Source of the DNA: Uncultured Candidatus Berkiella sp.
Lineage (GTDB): Bacteria > Pseudomonadota > Gammaproteobacteria > Berkiellales > Berkiellaceae
DNA: 64,000 bases
NCBI GenBank assembly: GCA_964606325.1
Contig: CAZSGE010000010.1
Coordinates: forward strand, 9,645-73,644
Reading direction: 5' to 3'
A program made the translations under genes and the position numbers. Below, piece after piece: positions 41,750-42,489 of this stretch. The notes below the pieces were generated by a model. The model was not told the DNA's origin. It worked only from the letters and a program-made list of their open reading frames with translations, and searched no databases. How positions within the stretch are numbered: the stretch's first letter is position 1; every line of letters begins with the position of its first letter.

Positions 41750-42232
41750 ATGGTAGCAAGGACTGTTTGCATCATCATACTGTGTTTTAGTTTATCACTA
41801 CCTGCCCTGGCAAAACAGAATAAAACTCAAATGAAATCTCAAACCTCTGATTCTCATCAATTCGCAAAAAGCGGAAAAATAAAATTAAAAATTAATACTG
41901 ATGAGCTTGCTTCTAAAAATATTGGTCTTGCAATAAAAAATAACAAAATTGCAGGTGATTTATGTTTATATCACTCACATGTTTATGATGACCATACCTT
42001 TAAAGATGTTGTTGTTAGTGAGTTTTTGCTTGAAAATATCAGCAATGATGATGCGCACATACATTATGAGTTAATGCTTAAAGATAAAATTGGACTTGTC
42101 GCTAAAAGTTCTGGCAGAATTTATGTGCCCAAAGGCAAAAACCAGCCCATACGTTGCTCTAACATCCCTTTAAGTACTAAAGAAATTAAAGACATACGTT
42201 CTTACGAAATTAAATTGAGCACAAAAGATTAA
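41750..42232 (+). CDS. Hypothetical exported protein
   Basis: Signal peptide ending PALA; 160 aa. Confidence 0.65.
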   Translation: MVARTVCIIILCFSLSLPALAKQNKTQMKSQTSDSHQFAKSGKIKLKINTDELASKNIGLAIKNNKIAGDLCLYHSHVYDDHTFKDVVVSEFLLENISNDDAHIHYELMLKDKIGLVAKSSGRIYVPKGKNQPIRCSNIPLSTKEIKDIRSYEIKLSTKD

Positions 42233-42489
42233 TTTGAATCATCCATTAAGACTGCTGTGAAACCACCAACAAAGCCACCAATGCAGGCTCCACAACAGGC
42301 ACCTAGTGTTATCGCGTTTTCAAAAACACCAGGCATAATGGCAAGCAGCGGATATTTTGATACAACGCGAGCACCAGCGTAGGTTCCAATAAAAAATCCA
42401 GCTGTGGCGCCAAAAACCAATCCATTAAATAGGGCTTCTTCATTACCACCACTCACCAGCGTGGTTTCTTGAATGTTTAATACTTTCAT
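42229..42489 (-). CDS. Double-glycine-leader peptide (microcin/bacteriocin-like precursor)
   Basis: MKVLNIQETTLVSGG leader and a Gly-rich hydrophobic core; ATG 42489 (the track ORF starts at 42522). Confidence 0.7.
   Translation of the reverse strand: MKVLNIQETTLVSGGNEEALFNGLVFGATAGFFIGTYAGARVVSKYPLLAIMPGVFENAITLGACCGACIGGFVGGFTAVLMDDSN

Follow-up and report, generated by a model that had tools for sequence, protein, structure and literature searches.

Here we describe a predicted double-glycine-leader peptide gene, P0001, and the set of leader-tagged genes to which it belongs, in a 64,000-nucleotide stretch of DNA (hereafter the window) from an uncultured Candidatus Berkiella sp. (assembly GCA_964606325.1, contig CAZSGE010000010.1, positions 9,645 to 73,644 of the forward strand). 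The source assembly comprises 3.25 Mb in 128 contigs with a G+C content of 39.4%. According to the open reading frame (ORF) list, its translation and its relatives, the gene lies at 42229-42489 on the minus strand and consists of 86 codons plus a stop, running from an ATG at 42489-42487 to a TAA at 42231-42229. It encodes the leader MKVLNIQETTLVSGG followed by the core NEEALFNGLVFGATAGFFIGTYAGARVVSKYPLLAIMPGVFENAITLGACCGACIGGFVGGFTAVLMDDSN; translation confirmed the 15-residue leader, the 71-residue core and both hydrophobic GxxxG segments quoted in an earlier reading made from the letters alone (the sequence-only reading). Further in-frame GTG starts are present upstream at 42495 and 42522, and the methionine at 42489 was taken as the start because all relatives in a multiple alignment (A1) begin at the equivalent position. 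A Shine-Dalgarno-like AAGAG (42495-42499, minus strand) is located 5 nt 5' of the ATG, a weaker element than the GGAG/AGGA cores found at 47 of 59 sister genes in the same genome.

The stop codon of P0001 overlaps that of a convergent gene for a 160-aa secreted protein, and a 170-bp intergenic region separates it from a divergent gene for a RhoGAP-domain protein; a PTP-like phytase gene is also found nearby. Neither the ORF list nor the domains of the neighbours revealed an adjoining transporter, modification or immunity-type gene, as the sequence-only reading had stated. Both the PTP-like phytase (40626-41585, minus strand) and the RhoGAP-domain protein, which has a long coiled-coil tail (42660-43838, plus strand), are eukaryote-type effector candidates and flank P0001.

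The leader (42445-42489, minus strand) has Leu at -12, Glu at -8, Val at -4 and Gly at -2 and -1, with cleavage by a C39 peptidase predicted after Gly15. It conforms to the pattern of cargo of peptidase-containing ATP-binding cassette transporters (PCATs), namely hydrophobic residues at -4 and -12, an acidic residue at -8, Gly at -2 and Gly, Ala or Ser at -1, within 15-18 residues. It scored 31.7 bits on a 14-position leader matrix, against no leader of at least 14 bits in the reversed genome, and a hidden Markov model (HMM) of the leader returned it with a per-genome E-value of 3.9e-4. No signal peptide or lipobox was detected, the N-terminus being hydrophilic.

The core (42232-42444, minus strand) is the predicted mature peptide, which would begin at Asn16 of the 8.77-kDa precursor, a putative helical hairpin of 7,199 Da with acidic tails and a basic turn, an isoelectric point of 4.2, a grand average of hydropathy (GRAVY) of 0.85 and a glycine content of 16.9%. 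AlphaFold2, run with alignment A1, modelled the precursor as a helical hairpin (mean predicted local distance difference test score 77.8, predicted template modelling score 0.57), with a leader helix at residues 6-13 and two longer helices, 17-45 and 55-85, connected by a turn that extends from about K45-Y-P-L-L to P53-G. Helix 1 carries the first glycine zipper, in segment GLVFGATAGFFIGTYAG (42373-42423, minus strand), where G23, G27, G31, G35 and G39 recur at i+4; helix 2 carries the second, in segment LGACCGACIGGFVGG (G63-G76; 42262-42303, minus strand), formed by G63, G67, G71 and G75 together with G72 and G76. A Foldseek search of the model against the PDB returned nothing below E=1, and the weak top matches, to the membrane hairpins of ATP synthase c subunits and Mgr2, are consistent with the predicted fold being a transmembrane hairpin. 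Acidic tails and a basic turn are shared by nine of ten family members. By the positive-inside rule, this charge pattern agrees with a peptide that enters an energised membrane from outside and passes its turn across. Three cysteines (C65, C66 and C69) are present in the core; family members have between zero and three, none of them invariant.

P0001 represents a genuine, conserved and unannotated gene family restricted to one lineage, that of Berkiellaceae-type genomes. The identical protein was called by gene callers on eight metagenome contigs, and in the six copies that were fetched the DNA is identical to the window and therefore uninformative as a test of selection by nucleotide variation. 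A six-frame search of 40 related genomes recovered full-length relatives with 30-48% identity in seven of them, six from the same genus and one from another, with a patchy presence within the genus. Two of these relatives (in G010 and G008) retain the RhoGAP/160-aa/PTP-like phytase neighbourhood, and those in G002 and G003 have different surroundings. Across alignment A1 the leader is kept, ending in GG or GA, and Gly27, Gly31, Gly35, Gly67, Gly75 and Glu57, the last at the start of helix 2, are invariant; the K/R-Y-P turn and the acidic N- and C-terminal tails are kept as well. The possibility of a spurious ORF was rejected on the basis of this conservation.

A HMMER search with the A1 profile against 1.84 billion representative proteins gave 14 matches at E<=0.001, 13 of which have the same architecture and a length of 84-111 aa, whereas the 14th, a protein of 239 aa, matches only weakly (E 5.3e-4). 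The sole named member of the family is annotated as "hypothetical protein". In a word-indexed search of 5.8 billion proteins P0001 retrieved itself alone, its relatives having surfaced through the six-frame genome search and the full HMMER profile search. All Pfam matches were below threshold (DUF5862, E 0.0027; Gly-zipper_Omp, E 0.0035; Bacteriocin_IIc, E 0.074; Romo1, E 0.12), and the glycine-zipper outer-membrane lipoprotein families (PF13488, PF05433, YMGG) gave 12.8-17.7 bits against cut-offs of 24-25. A tblastn search against a plasmid collection returned no match, and there is therefore no measurable similarity to plasmid-borne microcin genes in that collection.

The sequence-only reading had placed P0001 within a dispersed family of membrane-active double-glycine-leader peptides and had proposed a scan of small ORFs for the leader pattern. 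Such scans were run by regular expression, scoring matrix and HMM. The regular expression M-[RK]-x-L-x3-E-x3-V-S-G-G alone returned dozens of small ORFs. The 14-position matrix was built from 44 seeds and applied to ORFs of 30-170 aa; it is circular for the seeds themselves and recovered some 15 further members. At thresholds of >=12-14 bits it identified 58-59 ORFs in the genome versus 0-1 in the reversed genome. These ORFs account for some 2% of a crude gene call of roughly 3,000 (59 of 2,993) and are spread over many contigs. A GGAG/GAGG/AGGA/AAGG core lies 4-16 nt 5' of the ATG in 47 of the 59 (80%), compared with 7.7% of random ATGs, an enrichment that provides independent support for translation. 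The dispersed set is thus borne out.

What these genes have in common is narrower than the word family implies. Core length ranges over 34-97 residues; roughly two thirds of the cores are hydrophobic and rich in small-xxx-small motifs and about one third are hydrophilic, and an all-against-all BLAST comparison of the 59 yielded 42 clusters (34 singletons). As judged by sequence comparison, these genes share the leader, and the cargos attached to it are mostly unrelated to one another, the core family of P0001 itself being small. Likewise, membrane activity is predicted for P0001, from its AlphaFold2 hairpin and GRAVY, but, with about a third of the cores hydrophilic, is not a uniform property of the set. 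Seventeen of the 59 genes occur in tandem pairs or triples, the rest being solitary. A regulatory motif shared upstream of all 59 was also considered and rejected: k-mer comparison with 1,914 other upstream regions yielded AT-rich words alone (best p about 5e-5 before correction for multiple testing).

Two further types of leader gene were observed within the set. In approximately nine of the 59 genes the leader terminates in Ala-Gly or Ala-Ala (VSAG, VSAA, VAAG) and not in GG, GA or GS, with Gly at -2 replaced; one leader ends in G-F and one in G-C; examples of the Ala-ending type are C6:32906-33166, C8:46884-47195, C23:16737-16970, C34:797-1030, C43:15012-15323, C46:14656-14907, C51:153-446 and C55:16313-16609. 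Either the C39 specificity of this clade is relaxed or these copies are uncleaved. Some tandem leader genes (C4:3949-4431, C4:95972-96567, C12:26007-26535, C46:18893-19683 and C104:2878-3493) encode cores that are paralogous, non-hydrophobic and 62-83 aa long, two conserved cysteines being present in some. These may be small folded secreted proteins, a type of cargo distinct from the glycine-zipper hairpins.

Exactly two C39-type matches were found in the genome, both on contig C40. One, a 723-aa PCAT (C40:6221-8392), carries the domains Peptidase_C39 (135 bits), ABC_membrane and ABC_tran, can be aligned with PCAT1 along its entire length (4RY2; E 3.7e-102) and has its closest relatives in Candidatus Berkiella metagenome-assembled genomes (74-92% identity). 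Its motifs ECG, NHFVV and HDP pair with DCG, AHFVV and ADP of PCAT1, positions which we take, from PCAT1 and ComA, to hold the catalytic Cys, His and Asp. A gene for a 416-aa HlyD-family adaptor (C40:8392-9642) overlaps the PCAT start, and a TolC-type channel is encoded on the same contig (C40:14612-16042; TIGR01844 match above cut-off). With an intact PCAT, an adjoining HlyD and a TolC all present, a complete route from PCAT via a membrane fusion protein (MFP) to TolC is available. The single shared exporter postulated by the sequence-only reading is thereby accounted for: there is one intact PCAT with an HlyD neighbour, and hence a C39-ABC transporter in this genome. P0001, on contig C10, is not clustered with it.

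The other match, a 760-aa protein, is an LssB-type type I secretion ABC transporter (TIGR03375, 994 bits; cut-off 693), accompanied by an HlyD of its own and by this TolC. It was rejected as the processing enzyme, being of LssB type with a C39-like match of only 26 bits and an N-terminus that does not align with the PCAT peptidase domain. The complete LssB/LssD/TolC-type cluster (C40:14612-20654; locus L009:9616-15655) lies 6 kb from the PCAT/HlyD pair, and in many relatives too the two are on the same contig, about 10-12 kb apart.

The lineage distribution of the leader was assessed with a 15-column HMM (A3) at E<=1 or E<=0.01. At the permissive threshold the source genome had 53 matches and 16 genomes of the same genus had 20-64 each, against 1-23 in the family's other genera and 0-2 in 16 genomes from other gammaproteobacterial families; the listed matches all fall within open frames of 55-160 codons. 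At E<=0.01, among genomes with completeness of >=85%, the counts were 41, 8-30 in the genus and 0-13 in other genera. The source genome is favoured in these counts because the HMM was trained on it. Forty-four matches were recorded in G013 (3.6 Mb, 3 contigs) and 37 in G001 (3.0 Mb, 30 contigs). A full-length PCAT orthologue (57-91% identity) is present in every genome with at least five leader matches, fragmentary in the fragmented assemblies G016 and G021, while G024 has neither the orthologue nor the leader family. No genome of another family has the orthologue, the one exception being G040, where a homologue of 46% identity accompanies a single leader match.

More distant PCAT homologues (46-57% identity) in other proteobacteria, including Natronospirillum, Salinispirillum, Azospirillum, Methylobacterium, Alteromonadaceae and Thermomonas among others, are accompanied within about 2 kb by ORFs with the same type of leader, for example MQTLNVQQVEQVNGG and MRELTSDELINVSGG, and several of these have glycine-zipper cores. 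Such cis-encoded peptides indicate what this clade of PCATs exports. At seven Berkiella-type PCAT loci, in contrast, no leader ORF was found within 5 kb of the PCAT. The Berkiella clade has therefore retained the pump and dispersed its cargo genes.

We also examined whether leader genes are accompanied by candidate immunity genes, using the crude call of 2,993 ORFs. Neighbours within <=400 bp, of <=220 aa and with at least one hydrophobic segment were found at 11 of 59 leader genes versus 19.1% of all genes, or, with at least two hydrophobic segments, at 5 of 59 versus 7.3%, ORFs shorter than 60 aa not being scored in either case. No immunity-type gene adjoins P0001 or the related loci, unlike the adjacency by which class II microcins are recognised (PMC12219008). 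The convergent 160-aa neighbour, whose only hydrophobic segment is N-terminal and signal-like, was considered as an immunity protein or dedicated partner and rejected on its distribution: its homologue is on a different contig from the P0001 relative in G002 and G003, and it also occurs in genomes without the peptide. The genome has no LANC_like match.

We consider it probable that P0001 is a PCAT-processed, type-I-secreted glycine-zipper hairpin, a judgement which concerns its predicted processing and export and not its target. Under this reading, P0001 would be one cargo of about 59 leader-tagged peptides encoded all over the chromosome, away from the pump. The leader would be recognised by the C39 domain of the single PCAT and cut after Gly15, and the PCAT, HlyD adaptor and TolC channel would expel the 71-residue core across both membranes. 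The predicted mature product is a 7.2-kDa, acidic and very hydrophobic helix-turn-helix hairpin with a GxxxG zipper on each arm, which would most likely insert into a target membrane such that the basic turn crosses and the acidic tails stay outside. Once inserted, the hairpin may associate with itself by way of the zippers and perturb either the membrane or a protein within it. Its target could be a rival bacterium, as with class II microcins, or a membrane of the host. All of this, from cleavage and export to membrane insertion and the target, is what we infer. Roughly apportioned, an antibacterial role is possible though not favoured and a host-directed one somewhat less probable, with the remainder falling to other targets.

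A number of observations weigh against this reading. The Shine-Dalgarno sequence of P0001 is weak, and a scan for sigma-70 promoters and terminators returned nothing for the gene, no sigma-70 consensus promoter passing. Leader position -7 is Thr, not a hydrophobic residue. Against PF10439 (Bacteriocin_IIc) P0001 reaches 13.5 bits with a cut-off of 27.1, and none of the NCBIfam bacteriocin models matches it at E<=10. The genome of G018 has a PCAT homologue (48% identity) and at most one leader match, and the co-occurrence of leaders and PCAT is phylogenetically confounded, since all positives belong to one family. There is no enrichment of immunity-like neighbours at the 59 loci, which is unusual for a self-toxic bacteriocin. 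Finally, the charge pattern fits a resident inner-membrane protein with an N-out/C-out topology equally well, and therefore does not decide between an exported and a resident peptide.

As a resident protein, P0001 would be neither cut nor secreted and would be inserted N-out/C-out by YidC or Sec, its "leader" being a conserved cytoplasmic or periplasmic tail that serves a different purpose. The charges obey the positive-inside rule for that topology, and the weak matches to DUF5862, Gly-zipper_Omp and Romo1 and the top, non-significant folds, which are membrane hairpins, are in agreement with it; those Pfam matches are, however, all sub-threshold. The same 15-residue N-terminus is found on 42 unrelated core clusters, a third of the cores being hydrophilic, as would be characteristic of a targeting tag and not of part of a fold. 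Moreover, the tag matches the leaders of cis cargo at homologous PCATs and tracks the PCAT across genomes, and we regard residence in the inner membrane as improbable. Still more improbable, to the point of being nearly negligible, is a ribosomally synthesised and post-translationally modified peptide of prochlorosin-like type, in which a promiscuous, remotely encoded enzyme would cross-link the three core cysteines ahead of export through the PCAT. Many dispersed precursors served by one remote machinery is a layout that recalls the prochlorosins, and C65, C66 and C69 would be available for cross-linking. This possibility is made unlikely by the lack of cysteine conservation in the family and of a LanC-like domain in the genome; in addition, no modification gene is found at the related loci, and the 15-residue leader is too short by comparison with the longer enzyme-recognition leaders of Nif11/NHLP type.

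The two remaining alternatives concern the target of an exported hairpin. A class II microcin in the strict sense would be a sub-case of the secreted-hairpin reading in which the target is a competing bacterium, such as co-infecting Legionellales or prey, in the amoeba phagosome or in a biofilm, and in which the producer is kept safe by non-adjacent or unrecognised immunity or by a missing receptor. We hold this as a tentative possibility. With its 71 residues, 17% Gly and acidic hydrophobic character, P0001 is within the microcin range as exemplified by MccV for size, glycine content and charge. PCAT homologues elsewhere have cis-encoded glycine-zipper cargo, and both the high variability of the cores, with 59 of them in 42 clusters, and the uneven occurrence within the genus fit arms-race turnover. 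The export logic and leader type match those of class II microcins (PMC10233263, PMC12219008), and double-glycine-leader bacteriocins of Bacteroides have been reported without immunity genes (PMC10233263). On the other hand, no immunity-like gene adjoins P0001 or the related loci and none is enriched over the 59 loci (ORFs shorter than 60 aa being unscored), described members of the genus are obligately intracellular (PMC9803151), a setting with few bacterial competitors, and 59 toxins without immunity would be unprecedented.

The absence of immunity genes would be expected if the target were non-bacterial. In that case, the PCAT/HlyD/TolC route would release the hairpin into the bacterium-containing vacuole, where it would insert into amoebal membranes, whether vacuolar or associated with the nuclear envelope, and the roughly 59 cargos would constitute a type-I-secreted effector library beside Dot/Icm. 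P0001 lies among eukaryote-type effector candidates (the RhoGAP-domain and PTP-like phytase genes), and the expansion is limited to one clade, the described members of which inhabit amoebae and lie beside the nucleus (PMC9803151, PMC6507137). Within the family, leaders are most numerous in the effector-rich genomes of 3-4 Mb and scarce or missing in the smallest ones (1.2-1.7 Mb). All of this is purely circumstantial, however, and effector neighbours may merely reflect the abundance of such genes in the genome; we therefore see a host-directed function as rather unlikely, if worth entertaining. Its fullest version, to which we give slightly less credence again, is that in Candidatus Berkiella and its family a bacteriocin-type PCAT pump has been turned into a multi-cargo route for 20-64 leader-tagged, fast-evolving peptides per genome, many of them immunity-less zipper hairpins, which would act on the vacuole or nuclear envelope of the amoeba and not on rivals.

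Comparison with known systems places the predicted secreted hairpin close to several groups without assigning it to any of them. Class II microcins are defined by a 15-18-residue GG/GA signal, export through PCAT, MFP and TolC, an adjacent membrane immunity protein and antibacterial activity, although double-glycine-leader peptides with non-toxin roles are also on record (PMC10233263, PMC12219008). Like P0001, the class IIa microcins (MccV/ColV, MccL, MccN) and the set of Parker et al. 2025 (PMC12219008) are small unmodified proteins of <10 kDa, with a 15-18-residue leader ending in GG/GA and a PCAT, MFP and TolC for export (PMC10233263), which for P0001 is predicted. In both cases conserved leaders are found on dissimilar cores that are Gly-rich and acidic or hydrophobic. 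In contrast to class IIa microcins, P0001 has no adjoining immunity gene, is not located near its putative exporter and would be made by an intracellular amoeba-associated producer; its similarity to named microcin and bacteriocin families stays below threshold. To our knowledge, class II microcin producers carry one or a few cargo genes, compared with about 59 here.

Class IIb two-peptide and lactacin-F-type bacteriocins (PF10439) also combine a double-glycine leader with zipper helices, and rely on GxxxG-mediated packing of hydrophobic helices in the membrane; in P0001, by contrast, both zippers are in one chain as a predicted hairpin, and the setting is a Gram-negative envelope with an MFP/TolC route. 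Bacteroidetocins are encoded as a few per genome. Produced by Bacteroidaceae, they share with P0001 a 15-residue double-glycine signal, a length of <100 aa and a PCAT, and include Bacteroides examples reported to be without an immunity protein (PMC12219008, PMC10233263), but they are encoded near their PCAT (PMC12219008) and no sequence relationship with P0001 was detected. Prochlorosins and related cyanobacterial multi-precursor systems (Nif11/NHLP precursors; Wang et al. 2011, PMC3140520) have dozens of scattered precursors with one leader, hypervariable cores and a single remote PCAT-type exporter. The Berkiella system differs from them in its 15-aa leader, the absence of a LanC-like enzyme and the unconserved cysteines. 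In prochlorosin-type precursors the leader is long, at roughly 60-80 aa, and brings in a modifying enzyme, for example ProcM. By analogy, the working of P0001 may resemble that of class II microcins or of a multi-cargo PCAT system, although, unlike a class II microcin, it lies away from the pump and has no immunity gene next to it.

Other features of the window include a second leader gene (51013-51186, minus strand), in which the leader MRNLNVSEVNVVSGG (31.3 bits) precedes an unrelated 42-residue amphipathic core and a GAGG Shine-Dalgarno sequence is present. A convergent 90-aa ORF with two hydrophobic segments lies just 3' of it (50693-50965, plus strand) and could be its partner or immunity candidate. 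Upstream of P0001, in the divergent intergenic region 51-68 nt 5' of the ATG, is a perfect 18-bp palindrome, GATAAAGC-TC-GCTTTATC (42540-42557), present as a single copy in the genome and a possible operator. It is not kept upstream of the P0001 relatives, and a conserved promoter or operator was rejected, as the upstream alignment contains none and the palindrome is specific to this genome. Further away are genes for a lysine-methyltransferase-like protein with a PKMT C-terminal domain (38725-40443, plus strand, upstream) and for a 547-aa protein with a weak DUF6829 match (44582-46225, minus strand).

The described members of Berkiella are obligate intracellular, nucleus-associated bacteria of amoebae (PMC9803151, PMC6507137, PMC4759071), and two strains have been grown in co-culture with amoebae (PMC9803151). 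Double-glycine peptides are absent from a comparative-genomics paper on the genus, which does mention type I secretion genes and RTX proteins, and searches of the full-text literature returned nothing on double-glycine in combination with Legionella, nor on C39 with amoeba, endosymbiont or Legionellales. The 2025 survey of class II microcins (PMC12219008) mentions neither Legionellales nor Coxiellaceae nor Berkiella. As far as the searched literature shows, a dispersed, immunity-less, genus-wide expansion of leader peptides in an intracellular lineage is undescribed, and current annotation overlooks the P0001 family, for which neither Pfam nor NCBIfam has a model.

Double-glycine peptides exported by PCATs are bacteriocins, microcins or pheromones, usually encoded beside the pump and an immunity gene, with one or few per genome. 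In Berkiella, leader genes are distributed chromosome-wide without recognisable immunity partners, alongside one conserved pump, and this holds throughout the genus. Were the peptides antibacterial, they would reveal unsuspected warfare by intracellular Legionellales-like bacteria and provide dozens of new microcin-like scaffolds. If they are directed at the host, they would represent a new class of secreted effectors and a new role for PCATs. Should a host-targeting library prove to be the case, Dot/Icm would be joined by a second effector system, and a PCAT cargo would for the first time be known to act against a eukaryotic host.

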